A stretch of DNA of 64,000 nt from Octopus vulgaris. Lineage: Eukaryota. The stretch covers positions 8,556,001 through 8,620,000 of the forward strand of contig OX597831.1 of the NCBI GenBank assembly GCA_951406725.2. Direction: 5' to 3'. The number at the start of each line of letters is the position of its first letter. The first letter of the stretch is position 1. The notes under the pieces were generated by a model. That model was not told the origin of the DNA and made no database searches. It was given only the letters and a program-made list of their open reading frames with translations. Below are positions 9,798 through 63,868 of the stretch, piece by piece. Position numbers and translations under genes: made by a program.

Positions 9798-9850
<53 letters not shown>

Positions 9851-10036
9851 CTACAAAATTAGAAAATGGAGAAACATACTTAAATCAATAAAACATCAAC
9901 TATCAGATGATACCCAATCAATACTTTATTACACCATTACATATCAGTAAAGGCATTATACAAAATATATAGTAAATATAAATAGACAAGGAAATAGAAA
10001 TATAAAATATAAAATATAATATGTAATTATATCATA

Positions 10037-10146
10037 TCTGACAGCTGTTTCGGCAGTAAGGGCAGTCATACCTCATTTAACCTATAAGCCATAAAGGCAG
10101 GTATAAATGAGGCATTAACAAGGATGCCCCACGGCCTCTTCAGAGA
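10037..10146 (-). ncRNA. Type-I hammerhead motif with 85-nt helix II
   Basis: TCT-CTGAAGA-GGC...ATGCCTCATTTA...TAAATGAGGTAT...GCC-GAAA-CAGCTG-TC-AGA. Core intact, G10.1-C11.1 pair, GUC triplet. Confidence 0.7.
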
Positions 10147-10622
10147 ATTTAATTTGTTATAATTGTGAAAAAATTATTTTTCCATATACATATAAATATA
10201 AAAATATAAAAATGTAAAATATAAAAACTTGTGCATAAACTCCATAATGCTACACATATATAATACTCATTGATACAATAATGCAAGGTAAACAAAACAA
10301 AATAAAACAAAATATATATCAGTGTATATATTAATATTAATAAGCACAGTTATTTTACATATTTGGCTAATATATATATATATATATTTATTGTAGGATA
10401 AAATGTTTTCGAAAAATACATTTTATCAATGGCCAGCATATTAAAAGATACCATTAAAATTTAAACTTATAAACAACTTATAAATAAAGGCAAACAAAAA
10501 ATTTCTGATGCCAAATATGCCGAACTTAGACACATTGTCCATAACCATTATAATTTTTTTCACAATACGCACGCTTCTCAAAAAAGGTCGAGAAAAATTT
10601 CTAAAAATTTCCATTATTACCA

Positions 10623-15266: not shown

Positions 15267-15318
15267 TACGTGCTGAGGAAGGTGAGGCTATTTGCCAGTG
15301 CAGAAACCGGTCCACGTG
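15267..15318 (+). ncRNA. Type-I hammerhead ribozyme motif
   Basis: Helix I TACGTG/CACGTG (6 bp incl. U-G), CTGAGGA, helix II with GGC-TATTT-GCC but a weak base, GAAA, palindromic ACCGGT, GUC triplet (cut after 15312). Confidence 0.7.
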
Positions 15319-27319: not shown

Positions 27320-28128
27320 CTACCTTGTAACTTGTCCCATCTGTGTGCAGCCCTGTGTGGCCAATAAAGAAACTTATCTATCGAGAAGCGCTACCCGTTC
27401 GGGATAAGCTCTACAGGCATGGCTTGAGAAACACGGGGCCAACCTGTGGGCTTATGTCGAACGACTGCTATGGCGTGTGGAACGAGTCGGTTTATCAACA
27501 GAGTCTATCGTGAAAATTGCTCCGCCACCTTCCTTGAAACGAGAAGGAAGAGCCATTTTTATCGTATTTATGGCTATGGCGAAAGAATGTGTATGGTGGA
27601 CGCGTCTGAAAAGTGTAGAGACAAACACTTTCCTCTCTGGTCAATCTCTCATCAACTTCTTCAAGTATCACTTGAAGAGGAAGGTGAGACAAGAGAGGGA
27701 AGTTTTGTTTAGTGAATGTTTCAAAAGAAGATGGGTAAATGTAGCGACGATGGCACGTGTGAATGACGAAGCCAGTTTAAGCTTAATCTTCCCCCCCGCC
27801 CCCCCAAAAAAACGAAAGGAAAAAAGAGAGCCACTTACTGTAAATGTGTTTTCTTTTTGTATGACACTATTGCCCAATGTTCCCGTGGTGATTTCTGTAG
27901 GTTTTTCTATCGACGACAAACCTAATCTGTTTTCCCTTTTTACATTGACATTTAAGTGATACACGATCCCTATTGATCGTTCCCACGTTTTTTCCATGAT
28001 CCCTTTTGATCGAAATCCGACCCATTTTTTCCCCTTCTCTTGTTCCCCAAAAGAAAAGCTCTACATTGTATTTTTCCCCTTCTGTGTTTATCCCTGCATG
28101 GCCAATAAAGAAATCCATCTATCTATCT
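27320..28128 (+). mobile_element. L1/Tx1-like LINE 3' fragments in (TATC)n
   Basis: Homologous to the minus-strand copy (EALPVRDKL...; MAKECVWWTRL...FFKYHLKRKV). The tail GGCCAATAAAGAAA occurs twice (27359, 28100), each followed by TATC repeats. Confidence 0.8.
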
Positions 28129-28149
28129 AGCTAAGCTGAGTTGGGCTGG

Positions 28150-28990
28150 GCTGACTTTCTTTATTGGCCACAGAGGGGACAAATACAAATGAAAAAGGGA
28201 AAAAAGGAGAACATATGTAAAATTCCGATCAAAAGGGATCGTATATTGCAGAAGAAATTTATTTAAAAAATATCCGAAGCAAGATTAGGTTCACCCGTGG
28301 AAAGAAAAGCCTACGGAAAAGACCACGGTAACCTCAGGCAGGGAAGAATAAACACATGAGAGCAAAGTGCTCTCTCTCTCTCTTTACGATTTACAGGATC
28401 ATACTCAAAGTAGTTTCTTCGCTCGCACGCACCATCCTTGCTACATTCACCTACCTTTTTTTGAAACTTTCACGAGGCAAAACCTGCCTCTCCATGCTCA
28501 CCTTCCTTTACAAGTGGTACTTGAAAAAGTTGATGAGTAATTGGCCAGAGAGGTAAGTGTTTGTCTCTAATCCTTTCGCTCGAGTCCACCACACACATTC
28601 TTTCGCCATGGCCACGATGAAGACTGCCTTGCCTTTCCGGTTGAGGGGAAGGTGGCGGAGCAATTGTCACGATAGATTCGGCCGACAGGCGGACTCGTCC
28701 CACAGGTGACAGCAGCCGTTCGGCATAAGCCACAGGTCCGAAATGGTTGGACACTGCACGAGTGCATGCGGAGCAGTTTCGTCACTCTGACCGCATCTCG
28801 GGCAAGTCGGTCCGGTGTGTTTCGAACCGTGCCTGTAGAGCTTATCCCGAACAGGTAATGCTTCTCGATAGCACTGCCAGGCCAGGGATCTTTGGTGATT
28901 GTCCATGGGTCCCGGCCCAAAAGTTGTCCTGAACAGTGGGGTCAGCTGTTCCTCGTCGACGCCCAGTTGGAAACGTCTGAGCAGGTCTTT
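28150..28990 (-). pseudogene. L1/Tx1-like LINE 3' fragment with CCHC zinc knuckle
   Basis: ORF 28667-29086 contains LAWQCYREALPVRDKL...CPRCGQSDETAPHALVQCP...LW (zf-RVT type). Confidence 0.85.
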
Positions 28991-29763
28991 GAGGCATTTG
29001 CATTCCCTCCTATTACTATCTCTGCCCACGTAGTCTATTCCACTCAGTAGCCACATAGACTTTTGCACTAGAAATAAAAATCCCAAATTTCGTATATTCC
29101 CTTTCTATCAATGTAAAGACGGAATCTCTATACAAGAAAGAATCAACAAGGAGAGTTTTTTTATTGAAAAATTCCAAACGCTGGTTAATATGCAAACCGT
29201 ACGGTGACTGGATTCCTTTTTCTAGCATCCTGTTTGACAAAAAACAGATATAAGCATCCTGTATTGACAAAAAATCCAGCATTCCAATTAAAGAGTATAA
29301 AATCCACAGAATTGTCTCCCCTTATTCACAGGAACTGGATAACACCTGCTCCATTTCCTGTTTTGACACATAAACATCCAACCTTTTCAAACAAAACGCT
29401 ACACCAAAACATATGCATCCTAATCCTCCAAAGAAGATTTTCCATGGAATAATATTGAAATTTAAAAGCATAAAGACACTAGAACGTATTGGTATACTTA
29501 TTTATTAATTTTTGTATATATTTATTATTTCTTTGAAAAAACATTGTAAATTTTTTTTCCCCTTCCTCATCTTAAAATTTTTTCCCCTTTCAAATCTTGA
29601 AAATTTGCCTTGCATTCAAAGCCTGTTTGATTTCCTTTTTTAATTTTTTGTACACCTATTTATATTAAAATTTGGTTTCAGTTTAGCATTGTGCCTTATT
29701 ATTATTTTTTCCCCTCTCCTATCATTTCTTCACATGCGGTTAACACAACCCCACCATTTACTG

Positions 29764-33185: not shown

Positions 33186-34740
33186 GATAACTCACAGCTT
33201 ATTTTGCTGGGTATGATGGGAAGTGTCAGCTGCCCACAGCCAGCAGACTAAGGTGGCACTTGTTTTATTAGCCATACTTCAAGAACCCTGCGAAAAATTT
33301 TTGCAGTTCCAAGCAATAATGGAAAAAGAAATGTGTTCTACCTTCACATTTGTACCGATCTTTTTCAGTCATATTGGTGGTTGAGTGCTGATACTTACAA
33401 GTGCACCAATTACTATTGGTATCACGTCTACTCTCTTCATTGACCACAGCCTTCGTATTTCACACTTTGAATCATCATAACTGTTTATTTTTTTCTTCTT
33501 CTTTCACATTGATCCTATTGTCACTGGGGCAAGCTATGTCGATTATCATACATGTTCTTCCTTTTTTATTCACCACAACAATGTCCGGTTTCCGATGTAT
33601 GGTCAGGTGATCGCACTGGATCATTGCATCCCACCAGATTTTGCAATTCTCATTTTCAGTGACTCCTGGAGTTTGCTCATACTACGTCTTTGCTCTTTCT
33701 AGGACGTGATTTCCACAGAGTTCCCAATGAATCATTCTTGTCACATTGTCATGGCGTCTTTTGTATTCGCGTTGTGCCAATTTGGGGCATTCGCTAACGA
33801 TGTGCCATACCGTTTCACTCCTCTCACCACACATTCTGCATTTGTCACTATCGGTAGTGTTGTCAATTCTGCACTTCATATAATTAGTCCTTAATGCTTG
33901 TTCCTGAGCTGCGCACATGAGTGTTTCTGTCGCTATCTTCAGGTCACTCCTCCTCATCCATAGCCACCGGTCCTCTGCATCTGTCTTGGCGTTCACATCT
34001 CTTGCAAACTGACCGTACATTTTCTTTTCCTTCCAGGCTTCTTTTTTGTTCATTTCTTGTTTAAATTTTTCTTTAGTTACACAATTTTCAATTTTGATGA
34101 CGCCGGCCTTCATGTGTTTCAACAATGGCTCCACGGCATTTTTTATATACCACCCTAGGCTGTTTTCCTCTACTTCGATACAGTCCTGGCAACTGATGAA
34201 GCCTTTCCCACACTTCCTTATGGGCAAATACAACCTATCGGTGTCATTCTTATGGTGGATGGTTACGTGTACTGCCAACATTTTTCTAGTCTTCGTATCC
34301 ATTTTCTTCATTACTCTTTTTTGTCATTTTATAATTCCTGCTTCATACCGAAATAATGCTACCGCCCACGTATTAACTGCTTGGATTTCATTCCATCCAG
34401 CCAATTTTGAGCGCAACACCAACCTCAGTCTTCGGAAATACGCCTCCTCAGTTGCTTTTTCATTTCTTTTTCCATTATCTCGTTGAACTCTAGTACACCA
34501 AGGTATTTGTATCCTTCGTTTCAATTTGCTTAATCAAGTCTCTGTTCGGTGATTATATCTTTGCTTCTTTTTAGGTAGATTATACAGCACTTCTTGAGTC
34601 CAAGTTCCATTCTAATATCAGTACTAAAACATTGAACCGTGTTCACCAAGAGACTCACTTGTGTCGCATCTTTGTCATACAGTTTCAAATCATCCATGAA
34701 GAGGAGGTGGTTGATTGTTTAAGGTTTTTCCTTTAGTTGG
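33184..34740 (-). pseudogene. R4/Dong-like (RT + CCHC + RLE) non-LTR retrotransposon relic
   Basis: Minus strand: INHLLFMDDLKL (~34720-34680), CRMCGERSETVWHIVSECPKLAQREYKRRHDNV, and HRKPDIVVV...IIDIACP (RLE PD..D). Frameshifted. The 3' end abuts (TAA)n. Confidence 0.9.
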
Positions 34741-35318: not shown

Positions 35319-38200
35319 TGTACTACGGACCGACAGGAAAGAAAGGAGTCATGGAGGTGTTGCTATGTACATCCGTGAGGACCTCACACCCCAGGTCCTC
35401 TTGTCATACTCAAACTCGGTGTGTGACACACTAATTGTACATATTAAGCAACTTGATGTAGTTGTGTGTGCTACATATCGCCCTCCAGATGCCCCAAGCC
35501 ATGTGGGCAAGTTTGCCTTATAAAAATAGAAGAAATTCTAACCACATTAGAACAACACATAGGTGTGCTTCTTATGGGAGACTTCAATCTGCCCAATGTC
35601 AGATGGCCCGAGGGCCTTTCTCTCCCAGGAATGACAAGATGTGAACGAGGACAGGCGAGGTCCCTCCTGAACCTCATCAACACCCTGTACATGGAGCAGG
35701 TAATACTCCAACCAACCAGGGCAGGTAACACACTGGATCTCTGCTTCACAAATGACATGGATCTCATCCATAATGTGAAAGTGACACCGACACTACTCTC
35801 GGATCACAACATGATAGAGCTGACCATGTACGGGCCAAAAGAGAGCACGGACATGCAGCCTACAAGAAACCCTCCAAATCTTTCCAGCTTGAACTACCAT
35901 AAGGCAAACTGGAAACAAATTGAGAAAGAGATCCTCAAACAAAACTGGCCTAAATGTCTCTCCTCGCCAGACATCGACGTGAAACTTCAACAATTCATGT
36001 CTGTAATGCAAGCCATATGCTACAAATGTGTCCCAGAGAGAAAGGCCACTGTACACAAGAACAAAATCCCCAGAGAGAGGAAAATTTTAATGAGACGGCG
36101 TACGAAATTTTCAAATCGCCTAAACAAACAGATTGAAAGCAGTGAAAAATCCCGCCTAAAAATAAAACTGTTGGAAATCGAAAAATGTCTGCAACTCTCC
36201 CATGAAAAAGAAAGAGCAGACAAAGAAGCCTGGGCTATAGAAAACATAAAATCTAACCCCAGAGCTTTCTACAGGTATGCCAAAGAAACAGCTACAGTGC
36301 ACTGTAGAATAGGGCCACTCCTCGAAAAGGATGGCACACTTACAGGAAAACCAATGAGGGTAAGTGAAATACTGAATGAGCAATTCAAGAGTGTTTTCAC
36401 TCCACCCCTTGGGCATCTCCAAATCACCAATCCAACTGACTTTTTTACCACTGCAGATATAAAATCAGAGGCGGCGACGATAGATTACATCGATATAAAG
36501 GAAGACGATGTAACCAAGGCTATAGATGAAATGAAAACAGACTCAGCTACTGGCCCCGATGGATTCCCGGCAATCCTCCTAAAAGCATGTAAGAGAGTCC
36601 TAGCAAGACCACTGCAGTTCCTCTTTCAGAGCTTCCTTGCAGCTGGCAAACTTCCAGGAAAACTGAAGGAAGGTAAAATATGCCCCATTCATAAAGGAGG
36701 TAGCAGAGCGGAAGCCAAGAACTATAGACCTATCTCTCTGACCTCACACATCAGCAAGGTCATGGAACGAATAGTCAGAAGGAAGCTGATCACCTTCCTT
36801 GAAGAGAATGACTTGCTGCCCGACACCCAACATGGTTTCCGACCAGGGAGAAGCTGTTTAACTCAGCTCCTACAACACTATGACTGGGTGCTGAAACGGC
36901 TGCTCAACCACTCAAATGTGGAAGTGATATATCTCGACTTTGCAAAGGCCTTTGATAAAGTCGATCATGGAATGATATGTCACAAACTGCGTGATCTCAA
37001 CATAGTTGGAAAACTGGGAGAATGGCTTCATGACTTTCTGAAGGATAGAAGTCAGGTGGTAGTAGCCAATGGGGCCACCTCCATTAACACACAAATAGTG
37101 AGCGGTGTTCCGCAGGGCACTGTTCTGGGGCCACTACTGTTCATAATGGCCCTCTCAGACATGCCCTCAGCCACGCAGAGAGCCACGATCACAAGTTATG
37201 CAGACGATACAAAAGTTTCACAGGCAATACAGAACCCTGAGGACACTAAACACCTGCAATGTGAGCTGGACGAAATATACAAGTGGGCTAAAAACAATAG
37301 CATGCAGTTCAATGCTGGAAAGTTTCAAGCTTTATACTATCAGCATGCAAAACTGAATGCAATACCCAATGAATACACTGGACCCGGAGGGATTGCAATC
37401 CCAGAGGCACAATCAGTGCGTGACCTGGGTATTCACATGAGTGATGACGCGACCTTTCATGTACATGTTGCTAAACTGACAATGAAATGTAGACGGCTGG
37501 CTGGATGGATTCTTAGAACCTTTAGAACAAGAGAACAAGAAACCATGATGGTCCTCTGGAAGACACTTGTCCTAAGCCACTTTGACTATTGCTCTCAGCT
37601 ATGGTCACCATCCAGTGACAAGTTGATCACAGAACTTGAGGCGATCCAACGAAGCTACACAAAGAAGATAGCCTCTATGCAGAATGTAAGCTACTGGGAA
37701 AGACTCAAAAGATTAAAATTATATTCCCTGGAGCGTAGGCGGGAAAGATATGCCATAATATACATCTGGAAGATCCTGGAGGGAAGTGTCCTGAACTTTG
37801 GCATCGAGAGTTACGCAAATGCCAGAACTGGGCGCCACTGCGTGGTGCCTAGGACTCCAAACCTGCCATCAAGATGTAGGACAAGATACTGTGATAGCCT
37901 GGGCTTCCGAGGCCCACAGCTCTTCAATATCCTCCCGAAGAACCTGAGAGACCTGCATGGGGTGGATACAGATGTCTTTAAAATGAAGCTGGATCTCTTC
38001 CTGTCAGGTGTCCCAGATGAACCAACTTCACGGCAGGAGGGGCAGATGAGGGCAGCTGCATCGAACTCTCTCATGCACCAAATAGCAGTTGCTAGAAAGC
38101 CTCCATGAAGTGAAACCAAGTAGCAACACCAAATGGCGGTGCCCCAGCATGGCCACAGCTCATAGGCTGAAACTAGAATCAATCAATCAATCAATCAATC
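35317..38200 (+). mobile_element. 5'-truncated CR1/L2-group LINE inserted in (TA)n
   Basis: Starts mid-endonuclease right after (TA)n, has a short 3' UTR with stem-loops and an (AATC)n tail at 38177-38200, then (TA)n resumes. Confidence 0.92.
35466..38108 (+). CDS. LINE ORF2: APE endonuclease (C-terminal half) + reverse transcriptase
   Basis: GDFNLP, TLDLCFT, SDH (APE); NYRPISLTS, QHGFR, YLDFAKAFDKV, GVPQGTVLGPLLF, YADD, DLG (RT). Upstream APE motifs (GGVAMY, YRPP) are in another frame, indicating a frameshift near 35520. Confidence 0.95.
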   Translation: MCYISPSRCPKPCGQVCLIKIEEILTTLEQHIGVLLMGDFNLPNVRWPEGLSLPGMTRCERGQARSLLNLINTLYMEQVILQPTRAGNTLDLCFTNDMDLIHNVKVTPTLLSDHNMIELTMYGPKESTDMQPTRNPPNLSSLNYHKANWKQIEKEILKQNWPKCLSSPDIDVKLQQFMSVMQAICYKCVPERKATVHKNKIPRERKILMRRRTKFSNRLNKQIESSEKSRLKIKLLEIEKCLQLSHEKERADKEAWAIENIKSNPRAFYRYAKETATVHCRIGPLLEKDGTLTGKPMRVSEILNEQFKSVFTPPLGHLQITNPTDFFTTADIKSEAATIDYIDIKEDDVTKAIDEMKTDSATGPDGFPAILLKACKRVLARPLQFLFQSFLAAGKLPGKLKEGKICPIHKGGSRAEAKNYRPISLTSHISKVMERIVRRKLITFLEENDLLPDTQHGFRPGRSCLTQLLQHYDWVLKRLLNHSNVEVIYLDFAKAFDKVDHGMICHKLRDLNIVGKLGEWLHDFLKDRSQVVVANGATSINTQIVSGVPQGTVLGPLLFIMALSDMPSATQRATITSYADDTKVSQAIQNPEDTKHLQCELDEIYKWAKNNSMQFNAGKFQALYYQHAKLNAIPNEYTGPGGIAIPEAQSVRDLGIHMSDDATFHVHVAKLTMKCRRLAGWILRTFRTREQETMMVLWKTLVLSHFDYCSQLWSPSSDKLITELEAIQRSYTKKIASMQNVSYWERLKRLKLYSLERRRERYAIIYIWKILEGSVLNFGIESYANARTGRHCVVPRTPNLPSRCRTRYCDSLGFRGPQLFNILPKNLRDLHGVDTDVFKMKLDLFLSGVPDEPTSRQEGQMRAAASNSLMHQIAVARKPP

Positions 38201-45690: not shown

Positions 45691-45941
45691 GCGCGCACAC
45701 ACACGCGCGCGCACACACACACGCACGCACACGTACGATCAGAGGTTGTCTTAACTTCGTGAAGGGATAGTTTCATCCAAGGAAATACTGGTTCAATACC
45801 TAGTATTTTCGGGGAATTATTTCCTTAAAATAATAGGTATATATATAAAAACATTGCTTATATTTACATAAAAGAAGAAAAAGAAAATGGAGATTGGGAA
45901 GTGAATAATTGTTTATTCTTAACAGCAAATTAATCATCATC

Positions 45942-46023
45942 CCTTACAGCTGTTTCAATTAATTCTCAGTAAATATTAATTAAATATTAAATCTATATGA
46001 CCTGAGAATAATATTTTCAGAGG
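45942..46023 (-). ncRNA. Degenerate hammerhead with 57-nt helix II
   Basis: CCT-CTGAAAA-..ATTCTCAG...CTGAGAAT..-GAAA-CAGCTG-TA-AGG. Core has G8>A. Confidence 0.55.
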
Positions 46024-46344
46024 TGGGGGAGGGGATACCCTTATGTGTTTATGGATTCATTATAGCAGACTGAATGATATTGTTTATGATTTGTATTGTT
46101 ATATGTTTGGGCGAGGGGTTTGCAGGTTGATTGGAGATAAGCTAGAGTAGGTGAATAGACTTAGAACAGTAAATGAATAAATTAAATAGGGATGATAGAG
46201 GAAATTTAAATATAAATAAGGTAAGTTTATTGTTAATAAAGAATGGAATAGTCGTTTATAAGGTATAAATAAAGTTAAGAAAATATGTATATATGCAAGT
46301 ACGAACGCATGCATATACACACATACAAATATGTATCCGTACGT

Positions 46345-46387
<43 letters not shown>

Positions 46388-46586
46388 GACACACGCATAT
46401 ATATACATCCACATGTACACACGTATGCACGTATATACGTATATACGCATATATACACATACATGTACATGCGCGAATAAATTAATGCGTATGCACATTC
46501 ACACGTACATGTATATATATACGCGTTTACACTTTTTACCTATCACCCTTAAAAAGTTTATATATATATGATATGGGTATCTTATT

Positions 46587-52622: not shown

Positions 52623-53467
52623 CTAGCAGAATTGCCCGGCGTTGCTCGGGGCTGAATTACTTGAAAGTACTGTTAATGATTGCACTGAATGATGATGATT
52701 ATTCAGGCAAATATTGATATAAGTTTACGCTGGGAGATAAGGACTTAACGATCAAACGTGTGCCATTGCATTGTTTTGGGGGAACCAAATTTCTGATGAG
52801 CATTATAGGGGCACCAACTTTAAGTTTGAGAATGTGTGGTGGTAGTCCGGGGTGCTCAAAGGAATTGAGTACCTCTATTGGATAGTTGATGACGTCCTCT
52901 GGGTCAGGAGTTGTATCGATAGACTGATATACATAGACTTCCCCAGGAATGAGTTTTAGCATTTCATCATTAATATGGTGAACAGTTTTATTCCTTGGGG
53001 CCAGTATAGCCTTTTTGCCAATCCAATCCATATTCTGATAATTAGCTTGTAGATCTTGGAACACTGTATCTCTGAGATCAGAAGGCGTCTTAACAATGGT
53101 ACAAATGGAATCGATGGCAATATTACCATTTTCATCCCCTGGTATTTTGCCTTCGCCAAGTGCAATGAGGGTGTGAGGAAATGCTGCTGATGTGATATTA
53201 CGTCGCATATGAGCACGCATATTGGTGTGAAGTTTGAGAGTTACTTCCCTTAATTTAATAAAATGCATTAAAATGGGAAAAAATGATGGTAAATTATTTG
53301 TAAAATCGTAGACTCATCGTAGACGCGCGCTAATACCCAGAAGGGCTCGATATGAATCACGACTATAAGATACTCGGTTTTGGTTAAACTGCATCGCAAA
53401 ATGTGGGAGTAGTTAGGAATCTAAATCGGAGTAGACAGACACACAACCTTTCTTTTATATATAAAGA
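52623..53467 (-). mobile_element. Internally deleted Helitron carrying a helicase fragment
   Basis: The 5' ~200 bp match 38652-38850. 3' end CCCGAGCAACGCCGGG...CTAG. Confidence 0.92.
52699..53268 (-). pseudogene. Helitron Pif1-like helicase fragment (189 aa, uninterrupted)
   Basis: LHTNMRA, ILAPRN, YQSIDT, LPPHILKLKVGAPIMLIRNL and CNGTRL motifs. Confidence 0.92.
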
Positions 53468-59400: not shown

Positions 59401-60446
59401 CAACAAAAGCTTATGCATGGCCTGGATAGACTTCAAAAAGGATTACAATATGTTGCCGCATTCGTGGATTTTGGAAACATTCGACATGTATAGAATAGCT
59501 GAGAACGTGTGTGCATTAAGAACAGCATGCCTAGTTGGAAAACGCGTCCTTCCTGCAACAACCAGCACTTAGCCGAGATAACAATCAAAAGAGGTATCTT
59601 CCAAAGAAACTCGTGTTCATCTCTGTTATTTGTTATAGTCTTACTCCCACTTTCTGTAATCCTTCGTAAAATCAACGAGCTGAGAAAGAACGGACCTCGT
59701 CTGAACCGCCTTCACTTCATCGATGATTTAAAACTGTTCGCAAAAACAGAGTTTGAAGTTGAGAGGCTGGTTAAGACTGCAAGTGTACAGCAAGGATATA
59801 GGGACGGAATTCGGTATCTCGAAGAGTGCAGTGCTTACTTTGAAGCAGGGGAAAAGAGTAAATTGCAGGGTCATTTGCCAAACGGAGAAAGAATGGAAGG
59901 CTCGGATGATGATGAGTACAAGTACCTTGGGATCCTGGAGCTGGACAATATCTTGCACGGAGAAATGAAAGACAAGGTCACTACTGCATATTTCAAATGC
60001 CTTAAACTTCTCTTGAAATCAAAGCTCAACTCAAGGAACTTTGTGACTGCCATCAACATATGGGCTGCTGCTGCAGTCTGCTATAGTGCACTCATCCTGA
60101 GATGGACACAAGCCGAGATTGACCAACTCGATCGCATTTCCCGACAGACAATGACAACGCATGGTGCCCTCGACCCTAAGGAAAATGTACACAGGCTCTA
60201 CATGAAGAGAGCATTGGGTTCAGTATCACCCAATCTTAGAGAAAAAAAAACCCATCTGAAAACCTTTGAAATACCTTACAATCTAGATGTATTGCAAAAG
60301 TTGGCATTACTTGGAACAGCACTCATATTGCGTCAATTATTGTCTGTCTGAGGTCCTTGTTGTGACTTGACAAACAGTACAAACCCCCGGCAGACACAAT
60401 ATCTTTAATCAACAACCTCATGATATTGTGTACTGTGAGCTGTCTT
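59400..60446 (+). pseudogene. R4/Dong-like LINE relic, internally deleted, within (TAA)n
   Basis: AWIDFKK, RGIFQ, HFIDDLKLFAK, YKYLGILE, HRLYMKR then a jump to ALGSVS...LQKLALLGTA. (TAA)n at 59323-59397 and 60447-60535. Confidence 0.9.
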
Positions 60447-62485: not shown

Positions 62486-63271
62486 CGTGTGTGTAAATAT
62501 GTCTGTCTGTCTGTCTAATTGTAACGATAAAAATTGCCATTTTCTAAAAGTAAAAAAGTGTAGGTAGCGTTCTAGTGGCTCAAAGAATATAATTAGGATC
62601 TGACTATGAGCGAAAAAATGTTATTAAGTTTGGGAAATAAACTAAATTAGATTAAGCAACAGACTCAGTGCTAACTAAATACGATGTGTATATAGTATGT
62701 TACGTTTCAGGCGACGTGTAAGTAAAACACAAACAAATATACAGATTTTGTTAATGTTAAATATGACATTAATGTTGGGAATTTTAAAATGTGTCGATAA
62801 AAATACCAGGGGGTGGATGGGTGGGATGGAAGAAAATTATGTTAAAGTTATTGAGAAGAACTGAAATTATAATGAAATGGAATAAAATATTTTATAAAAG
62901 AAGGACTAGTGAAATGTGTAAGAGGAATAAAATAATAAAAAGAATAGGAAAAGAAATAATATAAATATATTGATAAAAGAAAATTATAAGAAAAAATTAA
63001 GTCCTGAATTTTATGAAGACTGAAGATTGTTAATGGCGGACCTAAAATAAAGAATGAGTTAATATGGATCGAAATATATGCATTTAAGAAAGTCTTATGC
63101 GTAAATGAATGCATGTACAAATGCATATATATGTGTGTGAGTATATATATGCATATATATATATATATATATATAAAATTTGAAGAAGACAAAAAATGGA
63201 GAAATATCGATGAAAAACAATTGCCTTACACAAATTATTATTTATTAATTCACTACAAATAGACTGCATCC

Positions 63272-63381
63272 CATCTAACAGCTGTTTCTGCTTCCCATGT
63301 ATGGTATTGCCATTGATAAACTAAAATATGTATCATATTTGGTAATAAAACTGATCGGAAACATGGAGCTTCATCGGAGTG
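63272..63381 (-). ncRNA. Degenerate hammerhead with 82-nt helix II
   Basis: CACT-CCGATGA-AGCT-CCATGT...ACATGG-GAAGCA-GAAA-CAGCTG-TT-AGATG. Core has U4>C. Confidence 0.55.
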
Positions 63382-63868
63382 AAGAATAAATAAAGAAGAA
63401 GACCATAGAGGAGAAAAAGGGACAAGTTGAATATGGTTGTAATTATGCCATTTTGCTTGCGTATCTCTTTGGGATGTTAAGTAAATGACTAAACTAAAAA
63501 TAGCAGTTGGGGGATTAGTCCTTTGTACGGTGGGGGTAGGATTGATAAACAATAAAGAAACCAAAAATAACAGTGGGATACGCCAATAGATTTTAGTCGG
63601 GGGAGGGGTGAAGATACAATAATTTATAATAATTATGCTTGTAGTACTAATTAATAGTATTAATTATAATAAAATGCTTAATGGGTTAGGTGTAATTTTT
63701 ATTTATTTACTAGTTGATGGTAAATCCTTTCCACCTGTTGTCTGCAGTGAAATTGGTCAAGGCCAGTTGAAATTTAAAAACAAAAGGCCAGCTTTTGAGA
63801 CCGTCATACGGGGGTAAGATAAATAAATAAATGAATGGGAAAATGGTGTTTGTTGTATATATATATAT

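Follow-up and report, generated by a model that had tools for sequence, protein, structure and literature searches.

A long-helix-II variant of the hammerhead ribozyme in Penelope-like retroelements of Octopus vulgaris

Penelope-like elements (PLEs) of the Hydra clade have been defined by the motif set RW[KR], DKT, CxCX5C, CxxC, and CxH, in a protein whose reverse transcriptase (RT) is followed by a C-terminal GIY-YIG-type domain, and hammerheads of this clade, including that of Hydra-1_Obim from Octopus bimaculoides, have already been published (Craig et al. 2021, PMC8557442). The minimal hammerheads of PLEs were described to cut weakly and as dimers, and the example descriptor published with them limits stem II to 7 bp, loop 2 to 10 nt, and the box running from GAAA to UH to only 8-9 nt (Cervera and de la Pena 2014, PMC4209133), so that the motifs reported here are excluded by it on two counts. 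Relaxed descriptors were also used in the 2021 study (PMC8557442), and a 2026 paper calls a helix of 6-8 bp long (PMC13725137). Cleavage by the hammerhead of the anole PLE was reported to require addition of the protein encoded by the element, with the uncut RNA as the main template; the protein-binding region was placed in the start of the open reading frame (ORF), and cleavage was dispensable for insertion in vitro (PMC11167929). Our literature search, which left subscription journals, Repbase, and supplement file 1 of PMC4209133 outside its scope, found no study of a long helix II in animal Penelope elements.

Both the ribozyme and the retroelement clade are known already; the motif described here is an abundant variant of the former within the latter. 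What is new is the length of its helix II arm, the retention of that arm under divergence, an intact element with two ribozymes, and a lead on RNA editing.

Hammerhead motifs in the window and across the genome

The window, that is, the whole 64-kb stretch of DNA that was analysed, contains three exact matches to GAAACAGCTG, all on the minus strand (10051-10042, 45956-45947, and 63288-63279), just as the preliminary description had stated. For this word, which was picked post hoc, the mean count by chance is 0.07, and three or more matches were obtained in 0 of 100 shuffles. A box was found upstream of it at 85 nt (locus 1), 57 nt (locus 2), and 82 nt (locus 3), which agrees with the spacing of 57-85 nt proposed at first; the CUGANGA sequence is exact only at locus 1, whereas the box has decayed to CTGAAAA at locus 2 and to CCGATGA at locus 3. 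The repeat families to which the loci belong were aligned with 30 copies (family 1) and 20 copies each (families 2 and 3). The majority boxes were CTGAAGA in family 2 and CTGATGA in family 3, each window copy being down one core base, and the core elements CUGANGA, GAAA, and UH were found in order and exact at locus 1 and in the three family majorities. Helix III consists of two pairs and a palindromic loop. The features are the following.

9848-10372, minus strand: 3' end of family 1, a Hydra-clade Penelope-like element, 5'-truncated and ending about 190 nt past the predicted cut, on a TA repeat
10137-10146, minus strand: 5' strand of helix I (10146-10144) and CUGAAGA core box (10143-10137)
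10052-10136, minus strand: helix II, 85 nt, with pairing retained across subfamilies
10037-10051, minus strand: GAAA box, palindromic helix III (ACAGCUGU), UC, and 3' strand of helix I; predicted cut 10040/10039
45860-46567, minus strand: old truncated copy of repeat family 2, about 80-84% identical; Penelope-like by layout, with a weak ORF link
45942-46023, minus strand: hammerhead motif with a 57-nt helix II and the box decayed to CTGAAAA; predicted cut 45945/45944
63175-63857, minus strand: old truncated copy of repeat family 3, about 82-88% identical; elsewhere linked to a Hydra-type endonuclease and RT
63275-63379, minus strand: hammerhead motif with an 82-nt helix II (86 nt in the majority) and the box decayed to CCGATGA; predicted cut 63277/63276

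The stretch between box and GAAA had been described as a long hairpin at every locus. This was strongly supported at locus 1 (z -4.39, 0/200 shuffles; about 33 predicted pairs, -38.4 kcal/mol), where the stems named earlier are present in the predicted fold, and moderately at locus 2 (z -2.78, 3/200 shuffles), while the window copy at locus 3 folds at chance level (z -0.61, 55/200 shuffles). The majority spacers of families 1, 2, and 3 gave z values of -5.79, -1.93, and -2.25. Helix I, announced as about 3-4 bp, reaches 3 bp at the first two loci and only 2 bp in family 3. There is no defined loop 1 of the sort that makes contact with loop 2 in the fast canonical forms, a contact that minimal PLE hammerheads lack as well; for the intact element L261 (see below), helix I is predicted to extend further with many mismatches.

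Further hammerhead-like cores with spacers of 20-28 nt and other helix III words were seen in the window at 15273 (+), 9468 (-), 40169 (+), 56924 (-), 43108 (-), 21766 (+), 21445 (-), and 5845 (-); some of them may be due to chance. The open frames at 35457-38105 (+), 27408-29104, 52702-53313 (-), 33685-34323 (-), and 59503-60348 (+) we take to resemble other LINE RT/endonuclease pieces and one helicase piece.

Comparison of the whole window with Rfam placed none of the 150 matches listed (of 371) at the three loci, most of them being microsatellite matches to microRNA models, and a focused scan of 19 long-arm loci and of locus 1 returned no hammerhead family; nor was any SECIS model among its listed matches. 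The suspicion that descriptors with a limit on helix II length miss the variant was correct for the 2014 descriptor, and Rfam misses it too. Considering that both miss arms of at least 40 nt, hammerhead counts in such genomes are likely to be low.

In the genome (2.8 Gb), GAAACAGCTGT has 29,694 matches, compared with 591 when the word is reversed. Of the matches to GAAACAGCTGT, 6,838 have an exact CTGANGA at a distance of 40-130 nt on the upstream side, with about 570 expected by chance; a lack of enrichment of the upstream box and closing stem had been set beforehand as the outcome that would refute the motif, and the enrichment is present. By spacing, there were 2,459 boxes at 10-39 nt, 2,976 at 40-70 nt, 3,144 at 71-100 nt, and 718 at 101-130 nt, where one site may fall in two bins. 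The chance level of about 190 per 30-nt bin was taken from the background in sampled loci, instead of the reversed-pattern controls, which gave 1-3 per bin and understate chance; for spacings of 100 nt or less, each of the three bins is thus enriched 13-17 fold. Arms of at least 40 nt account for about three quarters of the exact-core sites with GAAACAGCTGT (6,838/9,297 matches).

Two features that were absent from the search pattern were scored in 80 sites with long spacers, sampled in the order in which they lie in the genome. A base other than G was present at the cleavage position in 80/80, and a helix I of at least 2 bp was found in 56/80 against 6.25 in shifted controls, reaching at least 4 bp in just 15/80. 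Beside the core, spacers of at least 40 nt had 1.66-2.82 expected closing pairs versus 0.19-0.32 in shuffles, and in 33 copies related to family 1 (see below) the first four pairs are 92.4% paired. The folding of single, decayed copies was weak at 40-70 nt, hardly above that of shuffles (z below -2 in 3/29 sites), and clearer at 71-100 nt (14/26) and 101-130 nt (11/19). By sequence, the 80 spacers fall into 30 clusters, of which some surely arose by chance, and the arms are unrelated in sequence. Clustering of the sites by their flanks put 63 of 90 in one cluster, chained through other repeats, and was dropped.

Hammerhead motifs whose helix II is far longer than usual are, then, enriched genome-wide. 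The distinct subclass with a giant helix II that had been proposed is not what we see: the same helix III word also occurs with ordinary arms of 21-29 nt and the lengths run from 21 to more than 120 nt, so the arms form a continuum, and the CAG..CUG helix III is already published for Hydra elements.

Carrier elements

The window loci are the 5'-truncated ends of three repeat families, all dispersed, with 1,367, 1,049, and 792 candidate copies at first look for families 1, 2, and 3; 40 candidates per family were scored. In family 1, the longer copies run into an RT-endonuclease ORF, and this family is a Hydra-clade Penelope-like element. The complete arrangement is visible in L261 (G000:C5:142941500-142951499), where a hammerhead, an ORF of 947 aa, and a second hammerhead follow each other with a period of 5,579 nt. 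The direct repeats of 883 nt, 98.2% identical, are pseudo-LTRs carrying the hammerhead, and the start codon lies 513 nt after the upstream predicted cut. The single ORF comprises the RT and then a C-terminal endonuclease, with a long asparagine-rich stretch between the two, and matches the published Hydra proteins in a by-eye comparison; its motifs RWR (K to R), SDKT, CNCRNKNKC, CSLC, and CIH fit the clade definition. Pfam gave no relevant match for a truncated family-1 ORF of 758 aa. The C-terminal position of the endonuclease excludes Naiad, and a non-LTR retrozyme, whose tandem unit is non-coding and of 150-450 bp, was ruled out by a family-1 unit that is coding and 5,579 nt long. Taking into account that the endonuclease is present in at least 150 genomic copies at 92% identity or more, family 1 is young.

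Copies of family 1 lack their 5' part, frequently occur in inverted orientation, and terminate on TA repeats. Among 53 unbiased copies only one has its 5' start at the predicted cut, and the 3' ends fall on two fixed sites, about 190 nt (41/53) and about 360 nt (11/53) past the cut, with one other; head-to-head pairs tend to carry one short and one long 3' end. The gap of about 170 nt between the two sites exceeds the tail of 30-40 bp reported in other PLEs. The second of these ends carries CTCATTTT. It was also possible to see that the three unrelated families share, close to the TA repeat on which they terminate, much the same CTCCATTTT word (9848-9875, 45860-45895, and 63175-63200), and this common terminal word is possibly a start signal for reverse transcription. 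Four loci (L163, L188, L189, and L190) have a common start, 22 nt ahead of the cut, with helix III kept and the CUGA box gone, and are perhaps a derived short family.

In the sampled copies of families 2 and 3 the repeat runs more than 700 nt upstream, which again is too long for a retrozyme unit. Family 3 is likely a Hydra-clade Penelope-like element, since a broken endonuclease 50% identical to that of family 1 lies upstream and colinear in L299 and, in L057/L270, the copy has an RT piece (60-63%) next to it in inverted orientation; the full element was not seen. Family 2 has the same layout as the other two, from which we infer a Penelope-like element. One endonuclease piece (34%, a weak link) abuts the 3' end of one copy, and the upstream walk ended short of any ORF.

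Retention of pairing in helix II

Considering that retroelement copies decay after insertion, diverged subfamilies related to family 1 were compared, in a set of 33 copies with arms of 82-100 nt and a long subset of 23. These subfamilies differ at up to 60% of sites and the long helix II is still folded, its distal part included. In the 33 copies 87.8% of the cells pair, and both partners have changed in 10/21 pairs; for the long subset the values are 80.6% and 20/36. These counts use structures drawn from the same sequences, lean toward the drawn structure, and ignore kinship. When double changes on the same branch of a tree were counted, the signal was modest in the 33-copy set (p 0.02) and there was no enrichment in the 23-copy set (p 0.47). 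A count of compensatory changes by shuffling of partners was rejected as too lenient, given that double transitions alone keep pairs, and for this reason we relied on a strict null in which the observed substitutions are re-placed at random positions. Among 106 ordered, non-independent pairs from 11 representatives picked for good folding, none of 60 nulls was as stable in 97. With all 23 long copies, unselected, the distal arm beats 95% of the nulls in 16/23 and the tip in 15/23.

Selection on folding along the whole helix II arm is thus likely in the family-1 lineage. Loss of the pairing in homologous copies had been named beforehand as evidence against the motif; such copies keep it, with both-side changes in 20/36 pairs and a distal arm above nulls in 16/23.

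In the main rival reading, the same ribozyme and the same elements could also carry an arm that has no role of its own, if loop 2 tolerates insertions and selection removes only those that misfold the core. This would explain the continuum of lengths, the unrelated arm sequences, and the fact that family 1 is without 14 nt at the tip relative to its relatives and yet thrives, and it agrees with the strongest sequence conservation being in the first pairs beside the core (G-C in 32/33). We consider it possible, although rather unlikely, because a dispensable arm is expected to shrink or decay, whereas the distal and tip helices, which sit 25-45 nt from the core, exceed the nulls in the 16/23 and 15/23 copies mentioned above, and 6/9 pairs of the middle helix and 6/9 pairs of the tip helices change on both sides.

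Proposed mechanism and comparison with known systems

We lean toward a model, with precedent in the minimal PLE hammerheads and in the anole element, in which the hammerhead motifs of the PLE terminal repeats cut weakly, probably only as a dimer or with the element's protein, and in which a helix II of 40-130 nt has been selected as a scaffold or handle. With two terminal repeats, a single transcript would carry two hammerheads at a distance of 5,579 nt. For a lone motif, the prediction favours an inactive rod where the core CUG is paired with the helix III CAG; the active monomer is 5-7 kcal/mol less stable than this predicted rod, and the duplex of palindromes is predicted at -11.1 kcal/mol. 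Pairing of the two ACAGCUGU palindromes would give a helix III of 8 bp, with the helix II arm serving as scaffold or handle for the assembly of dimer or protein, and two cuts would release an RNA of unit length whose first base lies 513 nt ahead of the ORF. Since the genomic copies keep 190 or 360 nt past the cut, reverse transcription would begin further downstream, on a template uncut or rejoined at the cut site; a single start at the cut and 52/53 ends downstream fit the anole case. Arms that are unrelated, vary from 21 to more than 120 nt, and tolerate the tip deletion fit poorly with one specific binding site. The anole findings that the protein binds in the ORF start and that insertion in vitro does not depend on cleavage also speak against the model.

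A lead on editing came from runs that are contigs, only guessed to be RNA, with no DNA from the same individual. In X1, a single contig across the cut has A>G changes in the sense direction at 12 listed places; six of these recur in X6, namely the core base A15.1 and five within the arm, X5 shows two, and X7 and X4 have one such place each, while in the large runs X15 and X18, of unknown kind, no change reaches 2%. The candidate sites span 9979-10139, including A15.1 and the base after the cut. At these sites G appears 0-1 times each in about 100 genomic copies, some of which may be duplicates. Changed adenines make up 0/7 of those preceded by G and 11/24 of the others (p 0.029). ADAR disfavours adenines preceded by G, and this matches the pattern here. 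A-to-I editing in the arm and at A15.1 is kept as a candidate, as a lead only, and inverted copy pairs could supply the duplex. In a bolder version, which we judge to be improbable, Hydra-clade elements repeatedly turned helix II into a long, shape-conserved arm under outside control, which docks the element's protein or recruits ADAR, an edit at A15.1 switching cleavage. If true, this would be a natural ribozyme under host RNA editing, in thousands of copies, all capable of cross-pairing through one palindrome.

An arm that is chiefly a double-stranded module facing the host, whether as an ADAR substrate that tunes the ribozyme or as a small-RNA precursor, would account for the clustered changes in the X1 and X6 contigs, for their rarity in the genome, and for the neighbour preference. 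It seems an unlikely reading all the same, for the contigs come from runs of guessed nature and not from the same individual, X7 and X4 add one place each and X15 and X18 none, the X1 changes extend past the arm as frequent head-to-head copy pairs would give, the genomic copies have no excess of A>G (8 A>G, 8 T>C), and the arm lacks the sequence conservation expected of a microRNA arm.

Still less probable is a motif that is past cutting and has been retained for its structure, in the service of RNA stability or packaging. A helix I of 2-3 bp and copies that do not start at the cut (1/53) would agree with it, as would the anole element, for which no reads ending at the cut were reported (PMC11167929), but the cleavage base avoids G in 80/80 sites and the family majorities keep the full core, as selection for catalysis would have it. 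That short words simply coincide by chance in AT-rich DNA, with some 190 boxes expected per bin and a locus 3 that folds no better than shuffles, is practically discarded by the bin counts, the non-G base, and the helix I features.

For the function of Penelope hammerheads, family 1 is a ready test system, being young, with open ORFs flanked by two ribozymes and with a long arm; should the editing lead hold, ribozyme activity would be linked to A-to-I editing.

By comparison with the hammerheads described for Hydra-clade PLEs (PMC8557442), the motif here is likewise of type I, near the 3' end, with a short palindromic helix III (CAG..CUG in several) and TA-repeat targets. Stem II and loop 2 add up to at most 24 nt in the 26 tabulated rows of File S2 of that paper, in contrast to 57-86 nt here and more than 120 nt in the genome, and Hydra-clade units are given there as generally below 3 kb, in contrast to the family-1 unit of 5.6 kb with a 3' UTR of more than 2 kb. 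The minimal PLE hammerheads (PMC4209133) share the short helix I, the unclear loop 1, the palindromic helix III, and the proposed dimer; their helix II, although called 'larger than usual', has 6-8 bp. The nearest arm is that of PLE-X1_sMoe of a spike moss, where the helix II region is extended to 53 nt (a 9-bp stem and a 35-nt loop) and flagged as deviating in File S2; unlike the octopus families, it belongs to a plant element that is endonuclease-less and targeted to rDNA, and it is a table entry (PMC8557442). Finally, Poseidon (PAc) of Anolis (Frangieh et al. 2024, PMC11167929) is also a PLE with a hammerhead whose copies end at two fixed downstream sites, and its template is the uncut RNA, comparable to the uncut or rejoined RNA proposed here. 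It belongs to another clade, its tail measures 30-40 bp whereas about 170 nt separate the two ends in family 1, and its ribozyme overlaps the start of the ORF, which in family 1 begins 513 nt past the cut.
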